Part shown: positions 8,739-55,695 of the stretch, in pieces
Numbering within the stretch: the stretch's first letter is position 1
Layout: each line of letters opens with the position of its first letter
Source of the DNA: a virus
Virus record (IMG/VR): IMGVR_UViG_3300028377_000005
Coordinates: 51,648-115,647 of that record
DNA length: 64,000 nucleotides
Strand: one strand, 5' to 3'
The notes under the pieces: generated by a model
Database searches by the model: none
What the model was told of the DNA's origin: nothing
Seen by the model: only the letters and a program-made list of their open reading frames with translations
Program-made: the position numbers and the translations under genes

Positions 8739-9131
8739 ATGTCCCAAATGACCAATTATTTGGAAAATGCACTGGTCAATCACGTGCTTCGCAACACGGC
8801 ATTGACTTCGCCCACAACCGTGTACCTAGCACTTTACGATGCTTCCCCTACCGATACAGGTACGGGTGGTACTGAGATCACAGGTACGGGCTATAGTAGG
8901 CAGAGCGTAACGTTTACGGCACCTACTAACGGATCCACTTCAAACTCCAGCACACTTAGTTTCACGAACGGTAGCGGCGGTAACTGGACGATTGCCGCTG
9001 TTGGTATTATGGATGCCAGTAGTGGTGGTAACATGCTCTTTCACGGCACCCTAACCGGAGGCAGTAAAACCGTTGCAGACGGTGATACCATCACGTTCAA
9101 CGCTGGTGATCTCGACATCACGCTTGCTTAA
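8739..9131 (+). CDS. small phage tail/fibre-associated structural protein
   Basis: NYLENALVNHVLR..VYLALY..TEITGTGYSRQ..DASSGGNML..KTVADGDTITFNAGDLDITL is a common phage tail family pattern; AGGAG RBS. Confidence 0.8.
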   Translation: MSQMTNYLENALVNHVLRNTALTSPTTVYLALYDASPTDTGTGGTEITGTGYSRQSVTFTAPTNGSTSNSSTLSFTNGSGGNWTIAAVGIMDASSGGNMLFHGTLTGGSKTVADGDTITFNAGDLDITLA

Positions 9132-9781: not shown

Positions 9782-11062
9782 TTATTCTGACTGCTCTTTT
9801 GCTTTTTGTTTCGCGTCGAGGATTTCACCCTTGATGCCACTGTACAACTCATGTTGCCACATGACGTCGAAGAGGATCACACTTTCACTGTTATAACAAT
9901 TCATTATCAATGCAAAGTCCGCTCTAGTATACTGATCTTTAGCGTACAAAGCAAGGGCCTTTTGTTCCTCTGAAGGGTCCACGGGATGTACCTCTTCGAG
10001 GCATTCGGCCAACATGTCACGCACCTCATCCGCACGGGAACGACATTTCGCAAGCCAATCTAGGTATTGCGTGTGGTACTTTTTGTAGTACTCCAGCGTT
10101 TCCTCAGACGTCGAACCCTCGTCGATCAAGTAGGTCTTGAGGGCTTCCCATTTTTCGAACTCAGGCTTGCCGAAACATATTTTGGTGACAGTTTTAATCG
10201 AACAACTGTACCGGAGCGCGAACTCCCACCGCCACCGTTCTGTTTTAGCCTTGACCCGGTGAACGATACGCCCGTCCTTTTCGAAGCAGATCACACCCCC
10301 TTCCGGCAACCAATCAGCATCCTCTAGGCCCAACACTGTTTCCACCGCCTCCGCCAGTGTTGTATTCTTGGCAAGGTATTCCACCGGCTTACAGTTGTTA
10401 TCCTCGGCCCACTCCATCACGCGGTCGTTGGTCCAATACGTGTGGGTGTCCAAGTCAAACACCGAAAGCACAATCAGATCTTCTCGGTCCCCATATTTAG
10501 TGACGCCCGATTCGCATTCCGGGTGCAGAGCTTCACAAACGATGGTTTTACCGCGAATCACCTCGGGATCGAGCAACGCGGGGTACTGGTCCTCAGCGAT
10601 GCGTCGAATAGCCCCGACATAATCGAAATCCGCGCCGTGGACATTGATATCCACACCTTCGAGCATACTACGGGTCGATACGTAAACCTCACCGTCGTAC
10701 TCGAAGATTTGCGCCATGTAACCGTCGTCTTTGAACGGCAAACTTACGCGCAGCGCTTCATCTTGCGCAAGGGCATGGGTTACCTCGTCGACCTTACCCT
10801 TTTCGCCGTGGTTGTAAATCTTGAGCAAGGGCAACGACACCACCTCATAAGGATCACGTCGGTAAACGATGCCCTTGGCGTAAAGCTGGTGCTCCCATTC
10901 CGGCGTGAACAGGATGCTGGAAGCATTCGCAATCACAAGCCCATTGTCGTGATCTCGCTGGTTAAGCATTTCATCGCCGTCGATAAGCGACAAGACCTCC
11001 TCCGGGTTGTCCCGGAGCTTACCCAAGAGGTAATCGATATGTACGTTCGTTACAGCTTTCAT
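9782..11062 (-). CDS. T4 Rnl1-like RNA ligase
   Basis: Nucleotidyltransferase motifs KDDG (I), STRS, CEAL (III), VFDL (IIIa), EGGVI (IV), RVKAK (V); start at 11062 by ATGA overlap and GGAG RBS. Confidence 0.8.
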   Translation of the reverse strand: MKAVTNVHIDYLLGKLRDNPEEVLSLIDGDEMLNQRDHDNGLVIANASSILFTPEWEHQLYAKGIVYRRDPYEVVSLPLLKIYNHGEKGKVDEVTHALAQDEALRVSLPFKDDGYMAQIFEYDGEVYVSTRSMLEGVDINVHGADFDYVGAIRRIAEDQYPALLDPEVIRGKTIVCEALHPECESGVTKYGDREDLIVLSVFDLDTHTYWTNDRVMEWAEDNNCKPVEYLAKNTTLAEAVETVLGLEDADWLPEGGVICFEKDGRIVHRVKAKTERWRWEFALRYSCSIKTVTKICFGKPEFEKWEALKTYLIDEGSTSEETLEYYKKYHTQYLDWLAKCRSRADEVRDMLAECLEEVHPVDPSEEQKALALYAKDQYTRADFALIMNCYNSESVILFDVMWQHELYSGIKGEILDAKQKAKEQSE

Positions 11063-11322
11063 GCTATTTTCTCCGCCACCCATATCAAGGGGTGGTAAAT
11101 CCACAACACAGTATCATTGATGCGGTCGAATATGCCCTCTCTCAAATCCCACATGTGGTAGATTGCACCCACGAAAATGAGGGGCAACGTGACCGGCAGC
11201 ACTAACAGGCAATAGGCCGCCAGTGCAAGGAGCCCAATCACATAAACAAAGGGCGTAAGCGTAAGCAGCACAACCGCCAGTGCCTTTTTCCAGAGGGGTG
11301 AACGATTAATGGCTATCCGCAT
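11059..11322 (-). CDS. small membrane protein
   Basis: Long hydrophobic stretch; overlaps both neighbours. Confidence 0.6.
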   Translation of the reverse strand: MRIAINRSPLWKKALAVVLLTLTPFVYVIGLLALAAYCLLVLPVTLPLIFVGAIYHMWDLREGIFDRINDTVLWIYHPLIWVAEKIA

Positions 11323-12013
11323 AGTATACCTCTTTCGCTTCCACCTGTACCACTTCCCGCTCAGGCCACCTCAGAGCCGCCAAGGTGTTTCCCTTGACGC
11401 AAGACGTATCCACGCAACAGTAGTGCTCATGAACGGTCGGGTCGTCCATCCAGTAGTGTCCAAAGACAACAAACTCGGGGCCTTCGTAATCCCTCCACCA
11501 TTCGATTCGGGAATTATCCGGGCCGCCACGGAGGCCGTACATACGCAATTTGGCCTTGCCATTGAACGCATGGACAGCAACGGCTTCACCACCGTCCAGT
11601 TCGATCTTGGTAGGCACTTCCTCTAAGAGGAATTCACCTAGCTCGGTTCTGGGGCTATCGAACGGCCACCCTTGCTCAAGCTCGGAAACCGTTTTCTGTA
11701 ACCCGTGTGCGATGGAAACGGGGTTGCCTTTCATCCATCGGAACAGCTTGTTGTCGTGGTTGCCTTGCACCCACAGGGCTTTGCCCGCTATCCAATGGAA
11801 ATAGGCAAACTGCAGGGCGAGGCTGTTATAATACCCACGATCTGTGATATCCCCCACCAGCACAAGCATCCGCCCTTCGGGGTGTTCGTACAGGCCATCT
11901 TCACCCATAACGTAACCGAGCTTTTCAACGAGTGCGATTAGTTCGTAGTAACACCCGTGGACGTCGCCTACGGCGTCGAAGTGGGTAACGTGTTTTGCGT
12001 CGAGTGTCGTCAT
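11306..12013 (-). CDS. calcineurin-like metallophosphoesterase (PrpE/Pnkp-phosphatase-like)
   Basis: GDVHG, GDITDRG, GNHD, VHA, FGHY and VDTSC motifs. Confidence 0.9.
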   Translation of the reverse strand: MTTLDAKHVTHFDAVGDVHGCYYELIALVEKLGYVMGEDGLYEHPEGRMLVLVGDITDRGYYNSLALQFAYFHWIAGKALWVQGNHDNKLFRWMKGNPVSIAHGLQKTVSELEQGWPFDSPRTELGEFLLEEVPTKIELDGGEAVAVHAFNGKAKLRMYGLRGGPDNSRIEWWRDYEGPEFVVFGHYWMDDPTVHEHYCCVDTSCVKGNTLAALRWPEREVVQVEAKEVYYADSH

Positions 12014-12894: not shown

Positions 12895-13902
12895 ATGGCT
12901 GAAACCAAATACAAAAATAAGCGGGAGACCGATGAGGGTACCACTGTGTATGAGTACTCCGACAAACAGGTCCAACACCGCAACCGTGAGAAAGCCAAGA
13001 AAGTCGAGCAATTAAGCAAGAAGATTGACGACCTCCGCAAACAGGTCAAAAAAGATCTCGCCAGCGACGACAGCGTAACGAAGCTCAAGGCCCTTGCTGT
13101 AGCCTTGATGGACCAGACCTATGAGCGTATCGGAAACGAAAATTCAGCCGAAGAGCGCGGGCATCACGGGGTCACGGTGTGGCGCAAAAAACACGTCAAG
13201 TTCAACGGCAATAAGGCCACGATCAAATACACCGGTAAGTCAGGTGTAGATCACACCAAAACCGTGGACGACCCGAAAGTGGTCAAGGTCCTGAAAGAAT
13301 TTACGAAAGACAAGAGCGGTGACGATTTCGTTTTCGACTGTGGGGATGAAGACGACACTTGCGTTCGCGCAAAAGACGTCAACGATTACCTATCCAAGTT
13401 CGATACCACTGCGAAAGATATCCGGGGATACCACGCCAACCGCCTGATGCAAGAGACACTCAAAGATCTCCGCAAAAAGGGCAAGAAGTTACCCGATGAT
13501 AAGAAAAAACGGGAAGAGTTGCTTAAAGAGGAATTCGATAAAGCACTGGAGATCGTCGCCGGTGAAGTGGGCCACGAGGCCGCTACATTGAAAAGCAACT
13601 ACCTTGTACCTGCCCTTGAGGACACGTACATGGATGGAGGCAAAGTGATCGACAAGCTAGATAAAAAGAAATCCGCCGCTATGAAAACAGCGCGCAACTT
13701 AACCCTAGCCCGTTACGTAGCACAGCGCTATATGCGCAAATCCCGCACATCAACACGTAACCTTAACGAACTCTTGGACGCCAATCAGGTGTACATGGGG
13801 CCGTTGGACGAGGGGATGGTCGAAGCGATGGATGCAGCGGGTGTCGACGAAAGCATTTTGTCGCTGATGCGTGATAGGATCAACGACCGGAACGGCAATT
13901 AA
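12895..13902 (+). CDS. DNA topoisomerase IB (catalytic core)
   Basis: ERIGN, YTGKSG, TAKDIRGYHAN and VGHEAATLKSNY give the R-K-R-H-Y catalytic set of the type IB family. Confidence 0.9.
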   Translation: MAETKYKNKRETDEGTTVYEYSDKQVQHRNREKAKKVEQLSKKIDDLRKQVKKDLASDDSVTKLKALAVALMDQTYERIGNENSAEERGHHGVTVWRKKHVKFNGNKATIKYTGKSGVDHTKTVDDPKVVKVLKEFTKDKSGDDFVFDCGDEDDTCVRAKDVNDYLSKFDTTAKDIRGYHANRLMQETLKDLRKKGKKLPDDKKKREELLKEEFDKALEIVAGEVGHEAATLKSNYLVPALEDTYMDGGKVIDKLDKKKSAAMKTARNLTLARYVAQRYMRKSRTSTRNLNELLDANQVYMGPLDEGMVEAMDAAGVDESILSLMRDRINDRNGN

Positions 13903-15682: not shown

Positions 15683-15990
15683 TCGTTGTCTTCGTCTAGT
15701 ATGATTTGCCGGAAATCTTCATCGGTCTTATACATGTGAAGGAACCATTTGAATTTTTCGCGTGCTTCGTAAGTGCCGGGCAATGCTTGCGTGAAAATCA
15801 GGTAATTCCAGTAACTGCCCCACACGAGTAAAACGCTAGCCCAAAAGTACATAGACCAGTCACCCCCTACCCACAAATCGTGAAGGGGTATAGCTATCAT
15901 GGCCGCACCGGTGGCCAAGGCAATAGCCTCAAGCAGATAGGTGGCCCGATATATGCGACGGTTTTCGATGTATGTGCGGCATTTTTTCAT
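15679..15990 (-). CDS. small two-TM membrane protein
   Basis: Two hydrophobic segments; start 15990 by ATGA overlap with the kinase stop. Confidence 0.6.
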   Translation of the reverse strand: MKKCRTYIENRRIYRATYLLEAIALATGAAMIAIPLHDLWVGGDWSMYFWASVLLVWGSYWNYLIFTQALPGTYEAREKFKWFLHMYKTDEDFRQIILDEDNE

Positions 15991-16505
15991 CGCAAGATCG
16001 TGACGTCGCCGCTTTCGGAATCGTATTCGAAAACGCCCGTCCACTTTTCGGTATCGTCGAGGACATTTTGCCGCGCATGGGCGAACCGTGAGGAGTGCTT
16101 TTCGATAACCCATTCCGGCACTTTACGGTCCCGGCTGGCGTTCCGCTCTTTACACAGTTCTTCGTCCGCTTTGATTAGGATGGCGTAGGAAGGCAACCCC
16201 TTAACCACCGGGCCGTAGTATGCCTTGCGGTTCTGACGCTTGAGGTTGGTCGCATCCAGAATGGTCCGTTGTCGGTACTCCGACCGGATCTTTACGATGT
16301 CGTAAATCATCTGGAACACGATACCCGTAACCCTTTGTTCCGTTGGGTCGCCACTCAAGACGCCCCGGTAATGGTCGGATGATACGATTTCGGTCGGACC
16401 ATTAGCCAGTTCGCGAGCCAAGGTACTCTTGCCGCTGCCGGATGAACCAATCATCACAATGACACAGGGGTCAGCCGTGTATTTTTTCAATTCGCGCAAG
16501 TTCAT
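15987..16505 (-). CDS. polynucleotide kinase-like P-loop kinase (AAA_33 type)
   Basis: GSSGSGKST, SSDHYR, LDATNL, RNASRDRKVP; AGGAGG RBS before ATG 16505. Confidence 0.85.
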   Translation of the reverse strand: MNLRELKKYTADPCVIVMIGSSGSGKSTLARELANGPTEIVSSDHYRGVLSGDPTEQRVTGIVFQMIYDIVKIRSEYRQRTILDATNLKRQNRKAYYGPVVKGLPSYAILIKADEELCKERNASRDRKVPEWVIEKHSSRFAHARQNVLDDTEKWTGVFEYDSESGDVTILR

Positions 16506-16522
16506 GTCTGCCTCCTGTACAT

Positions 16523-16551
16523 TCCATACCATAGCTATCCTGTGCCGTCAA
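16523..16551 (-). promoter_or_regulatory. sigma70-like promoter TTGACG-N17-TATGGA
   Basis: Intergenic, correct spacing, upstream of the kinase RBS. Confidence 0.55.
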
Positions 16552-18981: not shown

Positions 18982-19539
18982 TTACCTCCACGGTAAATTG
19001 CTGCGGTCGGGAGGGCCGATGGGTATGGGTATTTTTTCGTCTTTACCGCGAACCAAATAGATAGTGTCGCAGCACCACCCATCAAAGTCTGTGATGCCAG
19101 AGGTTTCCCAGCTTTGGGGGAAACCGTCCCTTTTGGCGTAGTAACCTAGCGTCATGTGGGGTGTGTAGCCGTACCGCTGCGGAGGCAGCATGTCGACTTT
19201 AGATAGGATATCGAGGTAAGTAGCTCGCCAGATATCTAGCCCGGCCCCGTTGATCAGGAGCCAATGTACGTACATGTCGGGTGCGTTGAAAAACCCCGTG
19301 CCTTCAACCCAAAGCTCGATGGGGTCCATAAGAGAAGCGGTCCTTTTACAGACCTGTAACAGTTGCTCCGCTTGTTCATCATCGGTTTGTCCGAGACGAA
19401 CAAGGGTCATGTGCAAGCCGTTGTTAATCACGTCGTCTTGGGCGTGGTCGTGGGCGTGGTCCAACACCACCTTGGGTGGGTAGATCGCCAGCATCGTCAT
19501 CTGATTGGTGATCGTCGGCGCATTGGCTTCAAAGTCCAT
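18982..19539 (-). CDS. 2H phosphoesterase (LigT/Acb1-like)
   Basis: Two HxT motifs: LHMTL and YTPHMTLGY. Confidence 0.8.
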   Translation of the reverse strand: MDFEANAPTITNQMTMLAIYPPKVVLDHAHDHAQDDVINNGLHMTLVRLGQTDDEQAEQLLQVCKRTASLMDPIELWVEGTGFFNAPDMYVHWLLINGAGLDIWRATYLDILSKVDMLPPQRYGYTPHMTLGYYAKRDGFPQSWETSGITDFDGWCCDTIYLVRGKDEKIPIPIGPPDRSNLPWR

Positions 19540-23960: not shown

Positions 23961-23994
23961 GCGCTTCGCCTTCCGAGGGGTTTCGTAATACCAA

Positions 23995-24026
23995 AAAGGG
24001 GACCCCAATCTATGGGATCCCCTTTC
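23995..24026 (-). terminator. terminator after the AAA ATPase
   Basis: AAAGGGGATCCCA-TAGAT-TGGGGTCCCCTTT followed by TT on the minus strand. Confidence 0.6.
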
Positions 24027-24045
24027 CAACTTCGGGGTCGTCCCC

Positions 24046-25722
24046 TTAGTTCAGGTTGTCGGCGTCGGCGTCTTTTTTGCCGAACAGGTTGTTGAGTCGG
24101 TTACCCGAACCTCCCTCACCTTCGGCATAAATCACATCGGCCTCTACGACGTCCTCACCGGAAGCGTAACGGGCACGCACACCTTCGCGACGGTTCGCAT
24201 CCCAGCCTACCCAATCGAGTAGCTCTTGGATTTCCTCTTGCATCGTCAGCACAAGCGGAGGCTTGGTGCGGATGACGTCGAGGATGATTTCGGTCGTGAC
24301 CTCTTTTTCGTCGGACATGAACGCCTTACGGATAGCATCACATGCCACCTGTTCGATTTCACGGCCCGTAAGCTGGTCGGACGTGTCCGCCATTTCGGCG
24401 AAGTCCAGATCGTCCATGTCGCCCATCGAATCGTTCCAGTATTTTTCGAACTGGATACGAAAGCAATCTTCGCGGGCTTGACGTGCCGGAAGCCCCACGA
24501 AATATTTCTCTTCGAAACGACTGATAAGCTCGGGCGGCAAGTTGCCGATACCGTTAGCCGTGGCGATGATGAAAATGTCCTCGTCGTGGTCTTGGAACCA
24601 CGAAAGGAACGTACCAATCACGCGGGCCGTTGTACCGGAGTCGCTGTATGACGAGGACTGGATACCCGCCAGACCCTTTTCGATTTCGTCGATGAACACG
24701 ACGCACGGGGCCACAGCTTCGATGTAGTTGAGCGCTGCCCGCATGTTGCGCTCTGAATCACCAACCCGGCTGCTGAAAAGGTTGGAAGGATCGAACTTCA
24801 CGAACGTCACACCCATTTCGTTGGCCAGCGCCTTTGCGATAAGGGACTTACCGCAACCGGGAACGCCAACCTGTAGAAGGCCGCGAGACACGGGGACACC
24901 GTACTCTTTGCCTTCGGGGGTCCATGCCGAACGGACTTCGTAGAGGCGCTCTTTGAGCTTGTCCAGACCGGCGATATCGTTGAAGTCGATATCGGTTTCG
25001 AGCAACTCCAGAAGGCTGGTTTTCTGGATGATACCCTTGCGGTAGTTTTGCATGTCCTCAAGGGTCACACTCAAGTCTTGCGCCGCTGCGTAATGGATGA
25101 TGGTTTCCTTGATTTGGAAAACCGTCAGTCCACGGCACGCTTCCACAAAGGTCTGCGGAATGTCGTCGCCTTCACGATCGGAGGGCAGTGTGAAACTCTG
25201 GTCGTAGCTCTGGATCACCGCTTCGACCGATTGCAACACCTTCAGAATCAATTCGTCCGAGGGTGCATCGAAATCGTGGACAACCGCATAGGGTTCGAGT
25301 GCGTGCGGAACCTTGCCCGTCTGACTCACCAGAACCACGGTTCGGGTTGCCCGATCGTTGTGCGACGAAGACACGGCGATGTTCTTGAGCCGACGCTGAA
25401 CCTGTTGGTCTTGCATGAACCGATCGGCGTCCAACATGACGTAGTACAGGCTGTTCTCGTCCGGTGCCTGCGGCGTCTTGTACATGTTGATGAGCGCCTG
25501 ATGGACATTGACCGTATCCTTGTCCGTGGGGTGGTTCAAGGCGTTCCACTCGTCGATATAGCGGCCCGATTCCATCATGCCGAACGTGACGTTCCAGACG
25601 AACATCTCGTCCTTTTTGCCGATGGATTTGTGCAACTCTTCGATCAAGCGGTCTTCCTCGTGAGTTTTAATGACGAGGAGACGCGGTAGGGACCGAAGAT
25701 ACCCTTCCAATTCGTTATTCAT
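24046..25722 (-). CDS. Ycf46-like AAA+ ATPase
   Basis: N-terminal KTHEEDR; GLDKLK, GVPGCGKS, VGDSE, FIDEIEKG, DSGTTARVIGTFLSW, ATAN, LPPELISRFEEKYFVGLP. Confidence 0.9.
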   Translation of the reverse strand: MNNELEGYLRSLPRLLVIKTHEEDRLIEELHKSIGKKDEMFVWNVTFGMMESGRYIDEWNALNHPTDKDTVNVHQALINMYKTPQAPDENSLYYVMLDADRFMQDQQVQRRLKNIAVSSSHNDRATRTVVLVSQTGKVPHALEPYAVVHDFDAPSDELILKVLQSVEAVIQSYDQSFTLPSDREGDDIPQTFVEACRGLTVFQIKETIIHYAAAQDLSVTLEDMQNYRKGIIQKTSLLELLETDIDFNDIAGLDKLKERLYEVRSAWTPEGKEYGVPVSRGLLQVGVPGCGKSLIAKALANEMGVTFVKFDPSNLFSSRVGDSERNMRAALNYIEAVAPCVVFIDEIEKGLAGIQSSSYSDSGTTARVIGTFLSWFQDHDEDIFIIATANGIGNLPPELISRFEEKYFVGLPARQAREDCFRIQFEKYWNDSMGDMDDLDFAEMADTSDQLTGREIEQVACDAIRKAFMSDEKEVTTEIILDVIRTKPPLVLTMQEEIQELLDWVGWDANRREGVRARYASGEDVVEADVIYAEGEGGSGNRLNNLFGKKDADADNLN

Positions 25723-25768
25723 TTACTTTCCTTAATGCGTGTCGTAGTGGCTTCTTGGTACGTATCGT

Positions 25769-25796
25769 ATTGTACTGGATTGGGAGGGCGTGTCAA
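25769..25796 (-). promoter_or_regulatory. sigma70-like promoter TTGACA-N16-TACAAT
   Basis: Intergenic, upstream of the AAA ATPase. Confidence 0.65.
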
Positions 25797-25800
25797 CCGC

Positions 25801-26286
25801 CTATTTCAAGGGCGTCTTACCCATGAGTTCATAGGTTTCTTTGTCACTCATGTTTTCGCGCTTTTCCCATTCGGCAGGCTTTTCCTCGACGTAGGGTACA
25901 CGGCTTACTGGAATTTGTTTCTGTACCGTTTCGCAGTCGAGGATAAGGGCCAGTATTTCATCCCCTTCAGGTCCACAGATAAGCATGTTGCTTTCGGTAC
26001 CACACCCACCACACAGAACCCGAAGATCCTTTCCGGCAGACAAGACGTGGTGCGCCCAAATGCTGTTCTCTTTACTGTCTTTACTGATAGGGGTTTCCCG
26101 GAAATCCACGTCGGCGTCAGTGAAAACAAGCTCTTTCGGGATCCCCAGAGAAATACCTACAGCGAGGTCGTATTGAGGGTCCGCGATGTATAGGACAGGT
26201 TTCCCGCAATCACACACGTATTCTTTGCAATCGTATTTTTCGTCTGTGAGCGTTTCGTTGACCAGAAGGTCTTGTGGGGTAAGCAT
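25801..26286 (-). CDS. Zn-binding hypothetical protein, paralog A
   Basis: CDC..DPQYDLAVGISLGIPKELVF..WAHHVL..CGGC; GAGGTG RBS. Confidence 0.75.
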   Translation of the reverse strand: MLTPQDLLVNETLTDEKYDCKEYVCDCGKPVLYIADPQYDLAVGISLGIPKELVFTDADVDFRETPISKDSKENSIWAHHVLSAGKDLRVLCGGCGTESNMLICGPEGDEILALILDCETVQKQIPVSRVPYVEEKPAEWEKRENMSDKETYELMGKTPLK

Positions 26287-37521: not shown

Positions 37522-38148
37522 TCAATTGAAACTCAGGGAGACACCTAAAGCCGGTACGACGTCCGCCGCCATATAGCCAAGGCCCACGCCCACGAAAACA
37601 TCTGCGTTGTTGGTCAGGTCCATACCGAGGCTTAACCCGAACGTCTTGAGGCCCGCATGAAACTGAAGGTGCCAATCCCACAAGTGGAAAGGTTCCAGTA
37701 AAAGCATCGGATCCATCATATCTGTCACATCGCCTTTACCGATGTAGGTCGGGAGCCACGCGGCCCCTAATTTAACCCGCAAGCGAAAGCCCCAATCATC
37801 GGTTTCTTTTTCTTGCCGATTGACGACCACTTCGTGTTCGCCTTTCATTTGGAGCTGCCACGTACACCATTGAAGATCGAATGCGCTTTCGTCTTGGGTA
37901 AATACTTGACCGTCATCCGTGATCGTGATCTGAATAGGCTCCCAATTTAGCTCGATCTCATCGTTTTCAGCGGCGTCGATCATGCAGTTATGCAAATCCA
38001 AAACGTCCGCGTACTCTTTAGCTTGCTCTTCCGGGATGCATTTGTACCCGTCCGGGCAGGATGCCCATGCTTTTGACATCTCTAAAGCGGTGATCCCGAT
38101 CACTACCAATACAAGGAACCCGAGTTTTAGGTACGTGCTGTTGATCAT
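37522..38148 (-). CDS. exported protein with C-terminal amphipathic beta strands (outer-membrane/spanin candidate)
   Basis: Signal-like N-terminus ending AWA-S; C-terminal LGVSLSFN. Confidence 0.6.
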   Translation of the reverse strand: MINSTYLKLGFLVLVVIGITALEMSKAWASCPDGYKCIPEEQAKEYADVLDLHNCMIDAAENDEIELNWEPIQITITDDGQVFTQDESAFDLQWCTWQLQMKGEHEVVVNRQEKETDDWGFRLRVKLGAAWLPTYIGKGDVTDMMDPMLLLEPFHLWDWHLQFHAGLKTFGLSLGMDLTNNADVFVGVGLGYMAADVVPALGVSLSFN

Positions 38149-38187: not shown

Positions 38188-38706
38188 TTAGCTCCGAAGG
38201 TAATCAATGGTGTCTTGGTCAACCTTTTTTGGTCCCTCTTTGACAACCACTTCAAAGTTTTTCGGGGTGATTTCGATCACCTGTTCCACATCTGTATCTT
38301 CGACACCGGTAGGTAGCTTGATGGACTTTTCACCAGTGGACGTCTTGACCCGGATCTTTTTCTTGTCCCGGAAAGGATTCGACGAGCGGTCTAGGAGTTC
38401 AACTTCCTGTTGGACCCAACCAGTTTCGTCGGCTTCACCTTTCTTGATAGGCTTCCCGTCCTTGTCAACACGACCTTTAGGTACCTTGTTGGCAACCTTG
38501 ATCTCACTGTCGTCTTCGGGGCCGTCTGTACCAAATAGCTTACCAAGCACGCCGCCCACATTAAACCTATCCCCTACGCCGAACATAAGCATAAGCACCG
38601 CAACTAACACGACACCGATCGATATGATAAGGGCTACCGGATAACGAAGCAGCCAAGTATAAGCCGTTTTGAAAGCCGCTTTTGTTTTTTGCCAGATGGA
38701 ATCCAT
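38188..38706 (-). CDS. bitopic membrane protein (i-spanin candidate)
   Basis: One N-terminal TM (YPVALIISIGVVLVAVLMLMF) and a hydrophilic remainder. Confidence 0.65.
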   Translation of the reverse strand: MDSIWQKTKAAFKTAYTWLLRYPVALIISIGVVLVAVLMLMFGVGDRFNVGGVLGKLFGTDGPEDDSEIKVANKVPKGRVDKDGKPIKKGEADETGWVQQEVELLDRSSNPFRDKKKIRVKTSTGEKSIKLPTGVEDTDVEQVIEITPKNFEVVVKEGPKKVDQDTIDYLRS

Positions 38707-38798
38707 GTTGGCCTCTTTGGTTCGCGATTGTTACAAACCGCGATCTATAAACAGATACTCGATCCGAGATCTCCCGTCAAGGAGAGCGAGAAATAACA

Positions 38799-38834
38799 CC
38801 CTGACCGATACGTGATCAAGCGCATCGGTCAGGG
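38799..38834. terminator. hairpin terminator after the holin-like gene
   Basis: CCCTGACCGAT..ATCGGTCAGGG with T-rich tails on both strands. Confidence 0.65.
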
Positions 38835-38842
38835 CTTTTTGT

Positions 38843-39139
38843 TTACTCTTCGGGCAGCGCTTTAGTTTCGGCCTTGGCGTCTTTCTTGCTTTTGAAAAAG
38901 TCAGCCACGGGACCGGTAAATTTCTTACCGCCGTTGTAGGCAAGAAGTCCCCAGAATGCGTCCATAAGGTATGGGGGCATGGTTGACGCCGTTGCCCACA
39001 TATAAACCATCATCCCGAAAACGATCCAGTTCATCGATCGTCCAAGGGATAGGTGGCCGTCTTCAAGCAAAACAGACCCGAACTTGATCTCCTTGAAACG
39101 ATCTAGCCAGTCCTTAAAAATGTTCTTGTCTTTTTCCAT
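38843..39139 (-). CDS. small two-TM holin-like protein
   Basis: 98 aa; LSLGR then two hydrophobic segments and a basic C-terminus. Confidence 0.55.
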   Translation of the reverse strand: MEKDKNIFKDWLDRFKEIKFGSVLLEDGHLSLGRSMNWIVFGMMVYMWATASTMPPYLMDAFWGLLAYNGGKKFTGPVADFFKSKKDAKAETKALPEE

Positions 39140-39150
39140 TGCGTCACCTG

Positions 39151-40278
39151 TTAAGTTATGTAGGGTAAGTGCAGGGTAAAGGTCGTTCCTTGACCGGGTT
39201 CACTATCGACCTCGATGCTCCCCCCTGCATCCATTACGAATTGATAAATAAAATACCCACCAAGTCCGGTGCCCGTGTCTCGTTCTCGCGTCGTAAAGTA
39301 AGGTGCAAATACGTTTTGGGTGGCCTCTTCGTCCATCCCGCAACCATTATCTTCGAACTCCATAACCACGCAGTGATGGTGGTGTGTTTTTTCACATGCT
39401 CGGGTTCTGATTTCCATCCGGGCATCGGTGGCCAAGTGATCTGTGGCGCGGATAGCATTGTCAAACAGGTTAGTGAGCGTCTGGTAAAACCGGGATTTAC
39501 TCAACCGGACTACTTTGCCTACACCGTATTCGATATCAGCCTCGAAATGGCCGATGTACCTCTTGCCGGGTTCGATGTAGAACATCGTGCGGCAATAATG
39601 CTCAATGCTGTGGCCTAGATCGATCCGGTCATGCTGTTCGTTGAGTTCACGAATAGGTTCGGTCATATTGTTCAGGATCTCTGAGACGCGCCCTAACGTG
39701 TCCATGACCTTATCTGCCACTGCACCTTGTTCCCCTTGCTGAAGCACCTCTGTATATCCCCTAGCGATTGCTAATGGTGTTTTGAGTTCGTGGGAGATAC
39801 CGAAGAGCATGATCTGTAAGCGTTCGGCCCATTTGCGTTCTTCACGGGCCACGAGGACTTCCTCATTCACCTGAAGGCTTTCAAGAAGGACGAGGCAATA
39901 GCCCTCTTTCGGATGCTTGTAGATGCGGAGCATTGTGGGGTCTGCGAGGCCCTGTAATTGGATACCATGAGCCGCAAAAGGTTGGAGCGTGGTTTCCACT
40001 TCAAGGATATGTTTGAAGGTGCCGCGATCTTCAGGGACAAGGAACGCCGCGAAGTCCATACCCACATTTTTTTCAAGGCCACCTTTGAAAAAAATGTGGG
40101 CTGTCTTGTTGAAGTGCTGGATCTTGCCGTTCATGTCAGTGACAACGGCAAGATTGATGTTGTTGCGGTAACTTGGGAGGGAAGTAAGGCCCGACGTTAG
40201 ACGTTTAGCTCGCTTTATCAGCCACCATTTCCGAAAGGAACTGAGCCAGTTTTGCAGATGAGAAATGATCTTTTTCAT
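39151..40278 (-). CDS. cytoplasmic PAS-HisKA-HATPase sensor histidine kinase (start uncertain)
   Basis: VVTDMNGKIQHFNKTA (PAS-like); ISHELKTPL (H box); NLFDNA (N); EDNGCGM (G1); FAPYFTT (F); GTGLG (G2). Confidence 0.95.
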   Translation of the reverse strand: MKKIISHLQNWLSSFRKWWLIKRAKRLTSGLTSLPSYRNNINLAVVTDMNGKIQHFNKTAHIFFKGGLEKNVGMDFAAFLVPEDRGTFKHILEVETTLQPFAAHGIQLQGLADPTMLRIYKHPKEGYCLVLLESLQVNEEVLVAREERKWAERLQIMLFGISHELKTPLAIARGYTEVLQQGEQGAVADKVMDTLGRVSEILNNMTEPIRELNEQHDRIDLGHSIEHYCRTMFYIEPGKRYIGHFEADIEYGVGKVVRLSKSRFYQTLTNLFDNAIRATDHLATDARMEIRTRACEKTHHHHCVVMEFEDNGCGMDEEATQNVFAPYFTTRERDTGTGLGGYFIYQFVMDAGGSIEVDSEPGQGTTFTLHLPYIT

Positions 40279-40591
40279 AGACTTGCTCCCCCGTGTCTTG
40301 TGCGGCAATGAATTCCGGGCTTTGTTGGTGGCAGCCAGTCAAGAAAATGACAGGAGGGTAATAGTCGTGGTTGTGCAACCACTGGTAGAAGTCAAGCCCT
40401 CCCTCCCCATTGATGATCAGATCAATGATAACAGCGTCGGGTTCACCGTGTTCGATCATATAGGCTTTGGCGCGGTTGATAGCATGTGCTTTTTCCGTGC
40501 AAATTTCTACGTCGAAACGGGCCGACAATGTGACCTTGAGCATGGTCGCCATTTCACTGTCGTCTTCAATCACGAGCACTTTGGGCTTCAT
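40205..40591 (-). CDS. single-domain response regulator (receiver)
   Basis: VLVIEDD, PDAVIIDL (phospho-Asp), PVIFLTG, YEK; GGAG RBS. Confidence 0.93.
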   Translation of the reverse strand: MKPKVLVIEDDSEMATMLKVTLSARFDVEICTEKAHAINRAKAYMIEHGEPDAVIIDLIINGEGGLDFYQWLHNHDYYPPVIFLTGCHQQSPEFIAAQDTGEQVYEKDHFSSAKLAQFLSEMVADKAS

Positions 40592-40607
40592 AAACTACTC
40601 CGGTACG

Positions 40608-41057
40608 TTAATCGGTAGAAGGCTTGCCTACTACTTGAGAATCGGGATCTCCGTTCGCTTTTTCTATCTTCAGGTCCGTGTTGGCAATGTACAGAGATAC
40701 GGCCCCGGCTGCTAATGAAATCAGCAGAGGCCAAACCCACTTGAGCATCTTCACTGAGCCTTGGATCTCTTTGATGGAGTCCCGGTTTTCTTGGCTGTTT
40801 TTGCCTGCTTTTTCGATCGTGGTATTTTGATTTCTGAGAGTCTCTTCCACACGGGAAAGTGTACTACTTACCTCCCCCACATCCGAAGAAATGTTCCCGA
40901 GCGCCTTTTCTTGCTTCTCCATGTCACTGTGGACTTGGGAGATAAACTTGAATAGCTGATCGTCACGTGTTTTGCGTACCGATTTTTCGGCAATCAAACG
41001 CTCTTCCATCCGGGTCAGACGTTCTTTTACTCCATCAATTTTGTCGTCATCTGCCAT
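40608..41057 (-). CDS. coiled-coil protein with C-terminal TM
   Basis: Heptad-rich N-terminal part then WVWPLLISLAAGAVSLYI; common layout in phage lysis/tail regions. Confidence 0.7.
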   Translation of the reverse strand: MADDDKIDGVKERLTRMEERLIAEKSVRKTRDDQLFKFISQVHSDMEKQEKALGNISSDVGEVSSTLSRVEETLRNQNTTIEKAGKNSQENRDSIKEIQGSVKMLKWVWPLLISLAAGAVSLYIANTDLKIEKANGDPDSQVVGKPSTD

Positions 41058-41069
41058 AGCGCCCCCGGC

Positions 41070-41240
41070 TTATTCTCTGAGACGTTGCGTTAATTTACGA
41101 AGCTGTTCCCGTAACTCTTTGCTTTGGTCATCCGTTAAATTAGGCCCTGCCAACTGACTCCGCACTTGGTCCATCCGTTTACGAATCGACTGGCGCTGTT
41201 TTTCAGTTGACAGGTCACTTAGTTTAATTTTCCGAATCAT
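41070..41240 (-). CDS. 56-aa basic helical protein MIRKIKLSDLSTEKQRQS..LTQRLRE
   Basis: Translated by hand; GAGGT RBS; fills the gap between neighbours. Confidence 0.6.
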   Translation of the reverse strand: MIRKIKLSDLSTEKQRQSIRKRMDQVRSQLAGPNLTDDQSKELREQLRKLTQRLRE

Positions 41241-41248
41241 TACTTACC

Positions 41249-44200
41249 TCAGCAATGGTCGTCAGTGGGGGGAGCAATTGGTCCCGAAGGGTCACGTCCT
41301 CGGAGGGCTTCAACGTCACCCTTTACATTGCGCATTCGCTTCTGTAACGGGCGGCCTTCGATTCGATAACGATCGGCGGCGCAATACCCTTCACCTGCTC
41401 CCATCGGATGCATCTGAATCAAGAGGTCTACAAACTCTTTAGTGTAATCTCCGGTCAAGTCCAATTCTTCACCAAGCGTCATGCCGGTCAGAACAAGCAT
41501 CTGGACTTCATCGCCGAAGCTCGCTTTCAGATCATCGTCAGTAACGACTTCGCTTTTGTTGCGCACCAAGAAAGCTACACCAAACAGGACGGCCCCATGC
41601 ATCTTGAGGTTTTTAGCATCCGGGTTGTTCAGGTACGGGAGGTCTTTGTAAGTACGTCCACCCGACATAACAACCGCACCACCGGGTTTACTACCGCTTG
41701 CTGTCATAACGGTACCACCACGCAATGTGCGGTAAAGCTCATGGGTGTGTTCGTATTGCAAACCGCTGGTTCCGTCGCTGAATACCATCGCACCACTAAG
41801 GGTCGTTTTGCTGAGGCGGCGATCACTATGGTAATCACCAAGAGTTTCCATTGACACGTCCGGTGTCCAGAACCGCTTGTAATCGCCCTGAACGCCTTCG
41901 CCGATGAACTGGTAGTCACTAACCATCAACCCGAGAGGCAAGCGCTCAGTGACGCCCCCAAGGGTTTCAGATAGTGAGGGAGCTACCGTCTCCCCCGATT
42001 GCGTGTAGGGGTGTGCCCTAGACAGAACCTTACGGTCGTCGTCGGTTAGCGCCTCAAAAGGATAACCCGACAAGTCAAGGTACCCAATGTCTGTATACGA
42101 CCCCGGAACCACGGGACCACTGACGACGCCTGTTCCTAGAGTTGTAGCGAAGGGCAAAGCTGCTAGGATCTCTAGCGTGCCGGGGTTAGACACACGCACG
42201 TCTTCTTCGACATCGAAAGACGTCAAGAGGTCAAGCACATTGGCTTGGCTTTCGGTGTTACGCTTCGGGGTGTAATCCACGTAATCCACCGAAGACGTGT
42301 CCGTTGTCGCTGTCGGCATCGTACCATAGATCGAACCTTGATACGGCACCCGCGTATTAATCAGAAAGAACTCATCGCCAGTTTCCGCTGGCCCGTTCAC
42401 GAACATTTGGAAACTGTTCGAAAGCGCCGTGGAGGTAATGGTTCGTTTGTGAATGCGCATCAGGTCCGCTTTCCAATCATCGAAAAGGAACGCGGCAAAC
42501 TCAAACACTAGGGGTTGCCCCTCTAGGTCATCGCTTAAATAGTTCTGGTCAAGAGCGTCTTCTGGGATCACGAACGTGTTGTCATCCGTGATAATCAAAG
42601 AACGACGCTCCGCATCCGTCCGCAAAATGTTTGGGCGGTCTACACCCGAGGCAACACGATGTTGCGGACCGGAAAAGATACTGCTGCCCGGCGAAATATT
42701 GTAGTAATCATCTTGCGTATGTGCTGCGAACAGGCGAGCAACACCGAAATGAGCCGGAAGTTCAATCCCCCGGACACCACCTTTGTTATAGTAACGGCAA
42801 ACAAGAGCGCTTTGACCTCCGGGACCGCTACCAACTCCCGCCAAATCGAGGTAGCTTCCGAAGTCTGTATCCGTCATATTGACAGGATCGTATACGGCCA
42901 CCATTTTCTGGGACAAAAAGTTAGCCGTATTGAGGTCGGGACTACCCGATAGGAACGTACAGTTTAGCCCGTAAGCCGGTTCTGTCGAAGTTGCAGGCAC
43001 TGACGCCTTGGACTTGACAAAAGGAATGTCAATCCGTCCTAGCGAGGGTCGAAGCTCTTTGGGAACCACAACACTAGCATCGGAATCACCCGGTACTAGA
43101 TTGAATTCACCTGTGGGGTCCGTATAGGAGATAGCACTCGGGTTGCTTTGGAGGTCGAGACGTGCCGATACATTGCGCACAGGCTGGTAAAGGACCGTTT
43201 TAGACCCTCTATCCACATAGGCTTCTGCCCATACGGATTCAGGGCCTTTCGCAACATCTTGGGGATCCCGAACCTGCAGTTCTTTGTTCTGTTTGTGCGG
43301 GTAAGCCGTCAAAGATACAACAGGGCTTTTCTTTACCGTGGCTGCAGGGGAATCAGCAACATTTTGGTAGTCGTTTTCCCGGAGGTAATTAGCCCCAACG
43401 CCCGGATTTAGTTCAACATGCAATGCTTCATCCGGGACACGGCTGAGGCCGCGAGCCGGGTGGTACAGAAGATCATACGACACATTAAGCGACGACTCGA
43501 CCGCCGTGGCTGTTGCATTGGTGAGGACAATTGCCATGTCCTCATCATTCTCGTGGCATTCCGTAAGGCGGAGCGACCATGTACGGTTGTCCGTGTTGGC
43601 CGAGAAACCTGTTGTTCCTCCATCTGCGGCAACCACCTCAAGGTTGCCACTACCATCGACTCCGGTGATTCGGAACGCACCGTGGTTTTCAGGGTGCGTT
43701 GAAGTTGCCGTAGACCCTGCTGTGATCAGGATCCACGCACCGGCATTGAGCAACGCTGTTTCATCCGCCGCCGTAAAAGTGGTCCCTGAGATTTGAACTA
43801 CATCAGGAGTGCCGGGTACAAAAGTAAGATCATTTTGGCCTTCTGAAGAAACCGAAAGACCATCGACCTTCGATCCGAGGACCATAAACCAAGGATCGGC
43901 GTCCGTGGATTCCAGTGTCAAGGGAGCGTCTTTGCCTGCCGCACCATCAGCCGGGTCGGTGTCGCCAAACCAAATACGCACAGGGCTGTGACTAGATCCG
44001 TCGTACTCAAACGGATGTACGAAACGCACTTTACGGTTGTTGGGTGCCGACAACGGGAACGTAGCGCGGTACTGATCAAGGTCGAGAAGGACTACATCAT
44101 TTTGGCCCCAATTCTCAGCGCTTGAGGAGTTATAGCGATGAATAGTGGCATTGGGGTTTAGCGTCAGATCAGACGAATCTTCCGACGAACCCGAAGTACC

Positions 44201-45652
44201 CAACACCATCAGGTTATTGGGCTGCAGGGTACTGGCGTCACTGAACACTTTGCGCTTCCCATCGGGAGCGTCAGCTTTGATTGTATAGTCTGGCGCTACC
44301 GAACCCGCCCCGAAATAGTCGATCTGGAAATGTTTACGGCCTTTCACATTAGCCGAGGAACGTTTCCACGAAGTTGCCATTTCACCTTTGATAAGATCAT
44401 CAAAGTTTTTGCGAAGTAGCCCGTCGTAATCTAACCCGTCCATCGAAATGACGTGGCGGATATCGAGTACATCGTCCGGGGTAATCTGGTCACTGAACAA
44501 CCCGAGGGGGTGCCCGGACACAAAGTCTACCGAAGCGCTTACATCATGCGACGTGGCATGGGAATCACGAGCACCACGTTCGCTAATTGTGATCGTAGTA
44601 GCTGTGTAATCACTGTACTCCATGATCTCACCATCTACACGAAGCAAACCACCACCGGAGTCTAAGGTGGTAGCACTTTGCGTTGTGTCGACAGAGATAA
44701 CCGTGTCGGTTGCGCTCATGTCAGCGGTGATTTTGACGGTCGGGAGCACCTTGGCTTCCGACCGATCTGTCATATCAGGGTTACGATCAAAGGCACCATG
44801 CTGCTGCGTCTTGGTCCAGCTAAGGGTTGTGCGGCGGAAAACCATGCAAAGGGGTACCGCATACACATAACCATCCACGGTCCCAACCAGACCCGATTCA
44901 CCGTCACCATCACCGGCCCTCCACAGGCCCGGATCACCAAGCTCTTCTTTCATGTTGGTGAACTGGTAAGCCGGGTTGGCACTCGTGGTCGGGTTATCTA
45001 GCGTGCCTTGAGCCTTGACGCCCGGCGAAAAGCCGTGGGGATACAAAGCCGGGTTCACACCGGGAACCACGCGGAGGCGGTATTGCAATTGCACCCGTTC
45101 CGTGGTTTCAAAAAGGATAGCCGGATCTAGCAAATCATTATCGAGGTTTGTGCCCCCATACTCTACATTGCCGTACTTGTAAAGCTGGCTTTCCGAGGGT
45201 TTATTAACCGCACCGTCAGGGCTGACCTGTGATTTCCAGACCTCAAGGAACACGAAATTCACATCCGATTCCGAGGGAGTCCCCGAAGGCGGCGGAAGCA
45301 TGATCGAATTTTTCGTATCATTGGATTGAGTGCCAACGACTGGAATCAACCAACCATTGACATTCGCCCAGACAATATCCCCTTCACTATTTGCCCGGTC
45401 TTTACCTAACCAGAACATGTTCGAAGCTTGTCTATCAAACTCAAAGTCCGCCCGTGGATCGTATGCATTACTAATCCAGCCAGACGACACATTCGCTGAC
45501 ACGATGGTTTGACGGGCTTCCTCAGTCAATTGGGTAAGGAGGTTGAACTCCGCATCCAGAGGAGGCTTGCCACGCTGCCATACGATGTTGACGAACTGTC
45601 GGGCTTTTGCGGATAGGTTACGGGATACGCCGTCGCCGAAGAATTCCGACAT
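41249..45652 (-). CDS. large virion/tail protein, paralog of 51950-54502
   Basis: 1467 aa, beta-rich; N-terminal WQRGKPPLDAEFN, FLEVW, VQLQYRLR, DGYVYAVPL. Confidence 0.75.
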   Translation of the reverse strand: MSEFFGDGVSRNLSAKARQFVNIVWQRGKPPLDAEFNLLTQLTEEARQTIVSANVSSGWISNAYDPRADFEFDRQASNMFWLGKDRANSEGDIVWANVNGWLIPVVGTQSNDTKNSIMLPPPSGTPSESDVNFVFLEVWKSQVSPDGAVNKPSESQLYKYGNVEYGGTNLDNDLLDPAILFETTERVQLQYRLRVVPGVNPALYPHGFSPGVKAQGTLDNPTTSANPAYQFTNMKEELGDPGLWRAGDGDGESGLVGTVDGYVYAVPLCMVFRRTTLSWTKTQQHGAFDRNPDMTDRSEAKVLPTVKITADMSATDTVISVDTTQSATTLDSGGGLLRVDGEIMEYSDYTATTITISERGARDSHATSHDVSASVDFVSGHPLGLFSDQITPDDVLDIRHVISMDGLDYDGLLRKNFDDLIKGEMATSWKRSSANVKGRKHFQIDYFGAGSVAPDYTIKADAPDGKRKVFSDASTLQPNNLMVLGTSGSSEDSSDLTLNPNATIHRYNSSSAENWGQNDVVLLDLDQYRATFPLSAPNNRKVRFVHPFEYDGSSHSPVRIWFGDTDPADGAAGKDAPLTLESTDADPWFMVLGSKVDGLSVSSEGQNDLTFVPGTPDVVQISGTTFTAADETALLNAGAWILITAGSTATSTHPENHGAFRITGVDGSGNLEVVAADGGTTGFSANTDNRTWSLRLTECHENDEDMAIVLTNATATAVESSLNVSYDLLYHPARGLSRVPDEALHVELNPGVGANYLRENDYQNVADSPAATVKKSPVVSLTAYPHKQNKELQVRDPQDVAKGPESVWAEAYVDRGSKTVLYQPVRNVSARLDLQSNPSAISYTDPTGEFNLVPGDSDASVVVPKELRPSLGRIDIPFVKSKASVPATSTEPAYGLNCTFLSGSPDLNTANFLSQKMVAVYDPVNMTDTDFGSYLDLAGVGSGPGGQSALVCRYYNKGGVRGIELPAHFGVARLFAAHTQDDYYNISPGSSIFSGPQHRVASGVDRPNILRTDAERRSLIITDDNTFVIPEDALDQNYLSDDLEGQPLVFEFAAFLFDDWKADLMRIHKRTITSTALSNSFQMFVNGPAETGDEFFLINTRVPYQGSIYGTMPTATTDTSSVDYVDYTPKRNTESQANVLDLLTSFDVEEDVRVSNPGTLEILAALPFATTLGTGVVSGPVVPGSYTDIGYLDLSGYPFEALTDDDRKVLSRAHPYTQSGETVAPSLSETLGGVTERLPLGLMVSDYQFIGEGVQGDYKRFWTPDVSMETLGDYHSDRRLSKTTLSGAMVFSDGTSGLQYEHTHELYRTLRGGTVMTASGSKPGGAVVMSGGRTYKDLPYLNNPDAKNLKMHGAVLFGVAFLVRNKSEVVTDDDLKASFGDEVQMLVLTGMTLGEELDLTGDYTKEFVDLLIQMHPMGAGEGYCAADRYRIEGRPLQKRMRNVKGDVEALRGRDPSGPIAPPTDDHC

Positions 45653-55230: not shown

Positions 55231-55695
55231 TCACGGGAGGTCATATTGCACTGAGCTTCCATCGAAATACCCAACCCGGCCCTTGATGGTTGGTCCGCGA
55301 ACCGATTGCAAAGAGGAATCGAGCAGTTGGTTCGAATAGTAAGGCTTAGTCGATCCGTCCGTTGCCACGGTTATGTGGGGCACCTTGTTTTTACTCCGCA
55401 CACTGGAGGTCTGTACCGCCACGGCTTGTCCTTTATCATCTTCGGCGAAACCTACCACCTCAAGCTGTACCTCTTTCCCTAGTGGTAGATCATAAATAGA
55501 TGCGGGGTCTGGCCTGAACGCTAGGGTCATGTGATGCATGAACTCTTTGCTGTGTACCGGGCCAACTTCACGTTCCCACCAAGAACGGAGCGTTCGCCTC
55601 GCTCTATCATCCAAAAAGACCCCGGTGTAGATCACAGTCAAACCGGACAGTCTTTGGAGGTACTCCGCAGCTACTTTCTCAGATATTTCGCCCAT
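55231..55695 (-). CDS. 2H phosphoesterase (tRNA-ligase CPDase-like)
   Basis: HHMTLAF and KVPHITVA; GQAVAV. Confidence 0.8.
   Translation of the reverse strand: MGEISEKVAAEYLQRLSGLTVIYTGVFLDDRARRTLRSWWEREVGPVHSKEFMHHMTLAFRPDPASIYDLPLGKEVQLEVVGFAEDDKGQAVAVQTSSVRSKNKVPHITVATDGSTKPYYSNQLLDSSLQSVRGPTIKGRVGYFDGSSVQYDLP

Follow-up and report, generated by a model that had tools for sequence, protein, structure and literature searches.

The DNA analysed here (hereafter the window) is a stretch of 64,000 nucleotides, positions 51,648 to 115,647 of the IMG/VR virus record IMGVR_UViG_3300028377_000005, and it encodes a histidine kinase and a stand-alone receiver whose genes overlap within a cassette of small membrane-protein genes. 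Judged by sequence, the pair is mechanistically ordinary, with a predicted HisKA kinase and a stand-alone receiver. It is the setting that is unusual, with a virus-only family, overlapping genes, an amphipathic helix as probable anchor, a loop of Cys and His residues, membrane partners that are constant and a place in the virion operon of a huge phage. The most secure statement that comparison with related genomes allows is that a predicted switch was added to, and has been inherited with, a module of envelope proteins. As a tentative but leading explanation, we propose that the pair is an accessory phosphoswitch that would act by protein contact on this adjacent module and thereby tune what would most plausibly be a late permeabilisation or lysis step.

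All cassette genes lie on the minus strand and are transcribed in the order 1467-residue tail-fibre-like gene, p56, p149, 128-residue receiver, histidine kinase, p98 and terminator (Table 1). The spacing is as tight as the original prediction, made from the letters of this DNA, had stated, with successive gaps of 8, 12 and 16 nucleotides, then a 74-nucleotide receiver/kinase overlap and a last gap of 11 nucleotides. A Shine-Dalgarno site precedes each start codon, and the G+C content of the cassette is that of its flanks.

A complete kinase-receiver pair encoded by overlapping genes

The HisKA (PF00512, E 2.6e-9) and HATPase_c (PF02518, E 9.1e-22) domains of the kinase pass the Pfam cut-offs, as does the PF00072 domain of the receiver (E 8.7e-12, 45.6 bits vs a cut-off of 30.2), and the predicted two-component system is complete, intact and phage-borne. 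The start codon of the kinase is the ATG at 40278, which lies within the 3'-terminal part of the receiver gene and has a GGGGGAG motif 7 nucleotides upstream. The TTG at 40308, which opens the longest open reading frame, was rejected as start in favour of this ATG, as the latter is preceded by a ribosome-binding site and recurs in every relative; start codon and Shine-Dalgarno site are kept at all cassette loci. The two genes overlap in different frames, by 71–98 nucleotides in all five distinct relatives described below, and because the overlap and both protein sequences are conserved in all of them, the stretch 40205–40278 is dual-coding. Within it, the kinase ATG falls in the codons of a Y-E-K motif of the receiver.

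An AlphaFold2 model of the kinase built from 26 sequences (predicted local distance difference test score 77.5) comprises a helix (residues 7–42), a PAS-like alpha/beta domain (53–144), the DHp helices (149–214) and the CA domain. Its best full-length Foldseek matches are the PAS/LOV kinases 8a52 and 4gcz, VicK (4i5s) and ThkA (3a0r), and the closest catalytic core by sequence is that of ZraS (PDB 9JFJ, E 1e-24). As the original prediction stated, all catalytic boxes are in place; they comprise the H, N, G1, F and G2 boxes and are conserved across the 26 sequences: H173, within S-H-E-L-K-T-P on the DHp helix, is invariant, as is the H-E-x-x-T phosphatase motif, and N284, D320/G322/G324 (D-x-G-x-G), the F/P-Y-F-T-T motif and G346/G348/G350 are invariant or nearly so. 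The prediction that the kinase lacks a transmembrane segment and may begin with a basic, Trp-rich region was equally sound. A hydropathy scan found no hydrophobic or transmembrane segment in the kinase, and the first 18 residues make up an amphipathic helix that is cationic and rich in Trp and Phe (hydrophobic moment 0.60, charge +4) and whose character is retained in all relatives, down to 40% identity.

The ATP-binding domain also contains a loop, C305-x-K-x-H-H-x2-C313, that is invariant in the 26 members and forms a 5-residue insertion relative to ZraS. In the receiver, C31, H36, C87 and H88 are invariant among 6 orthologues, alongside D10, D11, D57, T85 and K107. The kinase loop (residues 305–313, window 39340–39370) and these four receiver residues may constitute a metal or redox site. 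As originally predicted, the receiver is a single PF00072 domain: neither Pfam nor the lengths of its relatives point to a second (output) domain, and the 18 relatives found are all 126–136 residues long and all come from the same clade and contigs as the kinase family.

A virus-only family inherited with its phage

Searches with the kinase returned 25 close homologues (E 1e-217 to 1e-68), followed by generic kinases at 1e-20. No member of the family was found in a scan of one genome for each of 185,579 species of bacteria and archaea, where the best match reaches 30% identity over the C-terminal half only; by these searches, the family is virus-only and set clearly apart from the kinases of cells. 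At six related loci, of which five are distinct, the tail gene is followed by p149, receiver, kinase and p98, in that order. These last four proteins share 30–67% identity with the five distinct relatives, with invariant catalytic residues, and the 1467-residue protein shows 53–68% identity among cassette-bearing relatives. Furthermore, the divergence of the cassette parallels that of the flanking core genes: identities are 67% (tail), 67% (receiver), 62% (kinase) and 80% (SNF2 helicase) in L003, and 55%, 53%, 42% and 61% in L001. A recent insertion of host genes without conservation, the possibility that the original prediction had proposed to examine by synteny, is contradicted by the five syntenic relatives and by the absence from species genomes, and on these comparisons the pair is not a recent host insertion.

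Outside this group, DNA and protein searches of GenBank phages retrieved no close relative of the cassette, of a 1202-residue protein, of p172 or of the 133-residue membrane protein of the relatives. A kinase annotated as phage-borne (MW462191.1) was set aside; it is only generically related, its neighbours encode an aminopeptidase N, a HigB toxin and a glutamine synthetase adenylyltransferase, and no phage genes lie nearby. A defence-system reading was also rejected, PADLOC having returned coiled-coil noise only.

Two complete relatives delimit what the pair can do. G001 (437,490 bp, with direct terminal repeats, rated complete) has exactly one receiver, and its two HATPase_c matches are the cassette kinase and a GyrB-type topoisomerase; this complete genome contains no Hpt domain, no second receiver and no output-domain regulator. 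The pair would therefore be self-contained, and its output would have to be protein contact. The second, G003, a complete genome of 398 kb, has no receiver anywhere. As the pair is missing there and at the related loci L180 and L181, the system is accessory and not a core function.

This dispensability at the level of the group could be taken to mean that the pair is simply carried along, neutral or decaying, and plays no part in infection. We regard this as very improbable, as about 25 genomes, with identities as low as 40%, preserve all catalytic residues, the overlap and the N-terminal helix, and show no stops or frameshifts.

Another explanation is that the pair targets host signalling, the receiver serving as a phosphate sink or decoy, or the kinase phosphorylating host regulators of motility, cell cycle, stress or abortive-infection pathways, with the membrane genes as unrelated neighbours. 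Stand-alone receivers such as CheY, DivK and CpdR commonly act on cellular partners, and no phage-encoded output was identified in G001. Moreover, three receiver domains occur in G006 (the record of L192, at 23964–26271 and 207665–207856) at sites unrelated to the tail-gene module, indicating that phages acquire such domains for varied uses. Yet receiver and kinase are co-inherited, overlapping, virus-only and far from cellular pairs, which fits an insulated private pair better, and p149 was always gained together with them. An action on host signalling thus seems unlikely to us, though worth keeping in view.

Stepwise assembly of the cassette

In a search with a profile of the tail-fibre-like protein, 53 loci of huge phages were retrieved, the longest contig measuring 536 kb, and hidden Markov models of the cassette proteins were run against their open reading frames. 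The genes p172 and p208, which in the window lie beyond the terminator, follow the tail gene at 16 of the 53 loci: two cassette loci, L180, L181 and 12 others. The full cassette stands after the tail gene in L178 and L179 (the same records as L001 and L002), and L180 and L181 have a p56-like gene, p98, p172 and p208 without p149, receiver or kinase. Ten of the 12 others carry p172 and p208 directly after the tail gene, and two (L200 and L202) about 8 kb further downstream, with neither kinase pair nor p98. The kinase pair is likewise missing next to p172 and p208 in L183, L184, L185, L189, L190, L192, L223 and L224, of which L223 gives a borderline p98 match (E 1.3e-4). The kinase block is found only within the sub-branch that has p98.

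In L183, L184, L190, L192 and L224, the slot between the p56-like coiled coil and p172 is filled by a membrane protein of 133–166 residues with one or two hydrophobic segments (hydropathy scan). These slot proteins are encoded at L183:14645-15046, L184:14617-15018, L190:14917-15399, L224:14701-15123 and L192:16754-17254, and also at L174:14509-15000; a 163-residue hydrophobic protein occupies the same slot in LR745208.1.

From these layouts, the ancestral arrangement has the tail gene first, then a small coiled coil and a small membrane protein, and finally p172 and p208. One branch exchanged the slot membrane protein for p98, and the p149-receiver-kinase block was added later, directly upstream of p98, in the sub-branch that holds this phage.

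The envelope proteins of the module

p149 has a single hydrophobic segment (residues 102–129) and an invariant pattern, R..R.EER..AE.S.RKTR.DQ.FK, and is present in all five distinct relatives. Its family is small (about 11 representatives among 1.8 billion in a profile search), its match to phrog_689 is weak, and its architecture resembles that of XhlA-type proteins. p56 was found by sequence search in the window and L004 only, and many wider relatives encode a protein of p56-like pattern behind the tail gene.

The AlphaFold2 model of p98 predicts helices at 32–49 and 56–91 arranged as a moderately hydrophobic hairpin, and two hydrophobic windows are shared across its family (12 proteins, all within the clade, with no Pfam match). 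The C-terminal tail of p98 is charged and basic. It shares with holins the small size, the transmembrane helices and the charged C-terminal tail. Its nearest Atlas clusters are small viral proteins, one of them labelled holin, with a weak structural score. Of the description of p98 as a two-transmembrane, holin-like gene, the membrane hairpin stands, on the model and the hydropathy of the family, but the likeness to holins does not extend to a family match by sequence or fold. Its identity as a holin is unproven, and p98 is a putative holin at most.

p172 has an N-terminal hydrophobic segment (residues 15–53) and is found in four of the five cassette relatives (not in L004) and at 12 further huge-phage loci without the kinase pair. 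It shares with inner-membrane spanin partners an N-terminal transmembrane segment; its periplasmic part does not look coiled-coil-like by eye. p208, which always adjoins p172 at the surveyed loci, has a signal-like N-terminus and an invariant ending, SLSFN. Its nearest Atlas neighbours are viral, with weak leads to PagP, PagL and outer-membrane-protein barrels. In one relative only, a DUF5662 gene (L003:12118-12576, E 5.9e-34) lies between p172 and p208.

The terminator predicted after p98 was recovered (Table 1). An equivalent hairpin follows p98 in L004 and is absent from L001 and L002, where p98 overlaps the start of p172; p149 to p208 therefore form one tight operon in these two relatives.

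Proposed mode of action and the lysis question

The two proteins look cognate and are encoded by overlapping genes, and phosphotransfer between them is predicted. The amphipathic helix at its N-terminus would probably keep the cytoplasmic kinase at the membrane surface, and the kinase would sense an intracellular cue via its PAS domain, and perhaps also via the invariant Cys/His loop. Upon autophosphorylation on H173, it would pass the phosphate to D57 of the receiver, which in turn would act by binding another protein; the lack of an output domain, together with the lack of a second regulator or Hpt in the complete relative, points to protein binding as the output. The likeliest targets would be p149, at its conserved N-terminus in the cytoplasm, or p98, at either of its cytoplasmic ends. 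In this way, the switch would tune the older module formed by p98, p172 and p208 behind the tail gene, whose function is most plausibly membrane permeabilisation or lysis late in infection.

Lysis as the process under control is favoured by the position at the end of the tail operon, by the small membrane protein that comes first in the older module, by the XhlA-type architecture of p149 and by the hairpin and charged tail of p98, with its weak Atlas link to a cluster labelled holin. Lysis genes are commonly located where a tail-fibre operon ends, headed by a gene for a small membrane protein.

Several observations weigh against this proposal. In a profile alignment to MtrA, the column of the canonical receiver Lys is occupied by D108 in our receiver, K107 standing one residue earlier, and no Pro follows. 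The assignment of p149 to XhlA (PF10779) was rejected at 16.9 bits vs a gathering threshold of 34.7, XhlA remained below threshold when the distant matches of the p149 profile among the 1.8 billion representatives were checked with Pfam, and XhlA-related PHROG families were matched by only two of six p149 orthologues. For p98, neither Pfam nor PHROG gave a match to a holin family, the profile search returned clade members only, and the best match in a Foldseek search of BFVD had an E-value of 0.24, with no significant match to a holin. A two-component spanin made of p172 and p208 was likewise discarded, the first Cys of p208 being preceded by Glu in four of five orthologues, with no lipobox. 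The terminator of the window parts p98 from p172, so that linkage with p172 and p208 is not universal, and the junction of two modules may merely tolerate insertions.

Finally, in none of the genomes checked was an endolysin found within the module or in its vicinity: neither Phage_lysozyme nor Amidase_2 is present, the nearest candidate in the fragment studied here, a secreted DPBB/RlpA-like protein, is encoded 72 kb away, the SLT and DPBB genes of G001 are more than 200 kb away, and the SLT genes of G003 and G005 are tens of kb from the module. The sole candidate cell-wall enzyme found in the fragment is a 172-residue protein encoded outside the window (G000:C1:18330-18848, L083), with a signal-like N-terminus and a DPBB_1 domain (RlpA-like lytic transglycosylase, E 3.8e-11), homologous to the 'lipoprotein precursor' gp251 of phage Tunturi_5.

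With no endolysin nearby, XhlA below threshold and p98 devoid of a holin match, the label 'lysis-like' that the operon had been given could not be upheld. The idea of lysis timing survives through position, the cassette lying directly upstream of a conserved module of envelope proteins, and it is our leading reading, plausible but unproven.

The same module may instead serve an envelope function other than lysis, such as superinfection exclusion, envelope remodelling, export or assembly via p98, p172 and p208, under control of the switch. Its composition of inner-membrane, periplasmic and possibly outer-membrane proteins suits such a role, as does the lack of an endolysin and of spanin hallmarks. 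We nonetheless hold this alternative doubtful, given a location favoured by lysis genes and no positive sign of exclusion.

A stronger version of lysis timing is that this virus-only phosphorelay directly gates a membrane-permeabilising protein, the phospho-receiver setting the moment of envelope opening by binding p149 or p98. Such direct gating is rather unlikely in our judgement. If true, it would represent the first known lysis clock under His-Asp phosphorylation, reading redox, metal or energy state via the PAS domain and the Cys/His loop. Phages are known to set the time of lysis by means of holins and antiholins and to listen in on the quorum signals of their hosts. Should the neighbouring envelope module be what the switch controls, huge phages, with their long infection cycles, would monitor the condition of the infected cell and choose the time of their exit, which would matter for burst timing, for phage ecology and for designing lysis modules that can be controlled. 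With four small genes and clear point mutants (H173A and D57A), the system is compact and directly testable.

Genomic context

The source record is a linear IMG/VR virus contig in which no terminal repeats were found, with a CheckV completeness estimate of 25%; it is a fragment, about a quarter of an uncultured phage genome of roughly 440 kb. An identical p98 protein, detected by profile search, is also present on a contig of 142.5 kb. The features of the locus are listed in Table 1.

Table 1. Cassette and adjoining features of the window
Feature	Position	Strand	Basis
1467-residue tail-fibre-like virion gene, precedes the cassette	41249..45652	-	Weak PHROG tail and tail-fibre matches; homologues
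p56, small coiled-coil protein, optional in the cassette	41070..41240	-	Sequence search
p149, tail-anchored coiled-coil membrane protein with conserved cytoplasmic N-terminal motif	40608..41057	-	Hydropathy, alignment
Stand-alone receiver, 128 residues, without output domain	40205..40591	-	PF00072
Soluble PAS-HisKA-HATPase histidine kinase, 375 residues	39151..40278	-	Pfam, AlphaFold2
p98, 98-residue helical-hairpin membrane protein with charged C-terminal tail	38843..39139	-	AlphaFold2
Intrinsic terminator after p98	38798..38835	-	15-bp stem, 9 G-C pairs, T-rich tail
p172, bitopic inner-membrane protein with conserved periplasmic domain	38188..38706	-	N-terminal hydrophobic segment
p208, secreted, four conserved Cys, possible outer-membrane barrel	37522..38148	-	Signal-like N-terminus

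Homologues of the 1467-residue protein are gp247 of Tunturiibacter phage Tunturi_5, annotated 'tail fiber protein', gp420 of Bacillus phage G and a protein of the huge phage LR745208.1. The claim that tail genes stand upstream is supported by weak PHROG matches and by the Tunturi_5 homologue; a search for solved structures of the tail-like proteins found none. Elsewhere in the window, a 130-residue protein (8739–9131, plus strand) has a match to gp80, the fibre I protein of podophage GP4 (PF23140, E 9e-42), and the N-terminus of a second gene in the left arm of the genome (12833–13216, minus strand) is similar to it.

On the 3' side of the terminator, p172, p208 and a gene of 88 codons are followed by an SNF2 helicase, the first gene of a replication module that includes a DnaB-like helicase, a primase zinc finger and a family A DNA polymerase. 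The cassette thus sits at the boundary of the virion and replication modules. Predicted sigma70-like promoters begin the downstream unit, and a search of the intergenic regions for a late-promoter motif gave nothing usable; late expression of the cassette is suggested by gene order alone.

This border position, with sigma70-like promoters opening the downstream unit, would suit a phospho-receiver that controls the expression of phage genes or the assembly of virions through contact with RNA polymerase, with a sigma or anti-sigma factor or with a structural protein. Neither a DNA-binding domain nor a known adaptor domain was detected in support of such a role, and the absence of the pair from the complete 398-kb relative rules out a core timing device; we consider it improbable.

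Further features of these genomes were recorded. The helicases of the replication module are enlarged in some relatives: the DnaB-like helicase has 929–980 residues in two of them (L002:16540-19482 and L005:15411-18200) vs 509 here, and the SNF2 helicase 1392 in L001 (L001:13205-17383) vs 563 here, which may reflect inteins or fusions. A scattered RNA-repair set comprises a T4-type RNA ligase, an AAA_33 kinase-like protein, two 2H/LigT-like phosphoesterases and a Tpt1/KptA 2'-phosphotransferase (window 9782–11104, 15987–16532, 18982–19539 and 55231–55695; L083:8800-9543). Two metallophosphatases (window 11306–12013; L083:10923-11870) and the catalytic core of a eukaryotic-type topoisomerase IB (window 12895–13902, plus strand, PF01028, E 1e-31) were also detected.

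Comparison with known systems

In full-text literature searches, we found no description of a conserved private His-Asp pair in the virion operon of a lytic phage. The nearest solved analogue is ThkA-TrrA of Thermotoga maritima (PDB 3A0R), which, like the engineered YF1 (4GCZ), also combines a soluble PAS-DHp-CA kinase with a receiver-only regulator; ThkA and YF1 are among the best full-length sequence and fold matches. These systems are cellular, whereas the phage kinase is virus-only, has in addition a conserved cationic amphipathic helix at its N-terminus and a Cys/His loop insertion of 5 residues, and is inherited together with membrane proteins. The catalytic core is best matched in sequence by NtrB/ZraS-type kinases, including the F-x-P-Y-F-T-T motif. 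ZraS is, however, a membrane sensor with an NtrC-type transcription factor as partner, and the phage pair has neither transmembrane segment nor output domain. The receivers of CheA-CheY, KinA-Spo0F and DivJ/PleC-DivK likewise lack an output domain and signal by binding or onward transfer. A Spo0F-type relay inside the phage is excluded, the complete relative G001 having no Hpt and no second receiver.

LytSR, with LrgAB/CidAB, is a two-component system tied to holin-like membrane proteins, in which LytS is polytopic and LytR binds DNA; the phage kinase has no hydrophobic segment and its receiver no LytTR or other second domain, which sets the pair apart. Among the PBSX lysis genes XhlA-XhlB-XlyA, the gene upstream of the holin encodes a coiled coil that is anchored in the membrane by its C-terminus. 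The match of p149 to XhlA is below threshold, and no amidase or other lysin adjoins the phage cassette.

Among phages, the lysis inhibition of T4 relies on the holin T and the antiholin RI, by periplasmic contact and with no phosphorylation (PMC11413866). The analogy is functional, both being cases of phage-encoded, signal-dependent lysis timing at the membrane, with holin and antiholin putative only in the present case. A broad review of jumbo-phage genomics mentions a single, divergent type of receiver, cREC, which it states is never found with histidine kinases and is linked to NAD/ADP-ribose enzymes (Iyer et al. 2021, PMC7824862). The cREC proteins too are jumbo-phage proteins of the receiver fold, whereas the receiver described here overlaps the gene of its own kinase.

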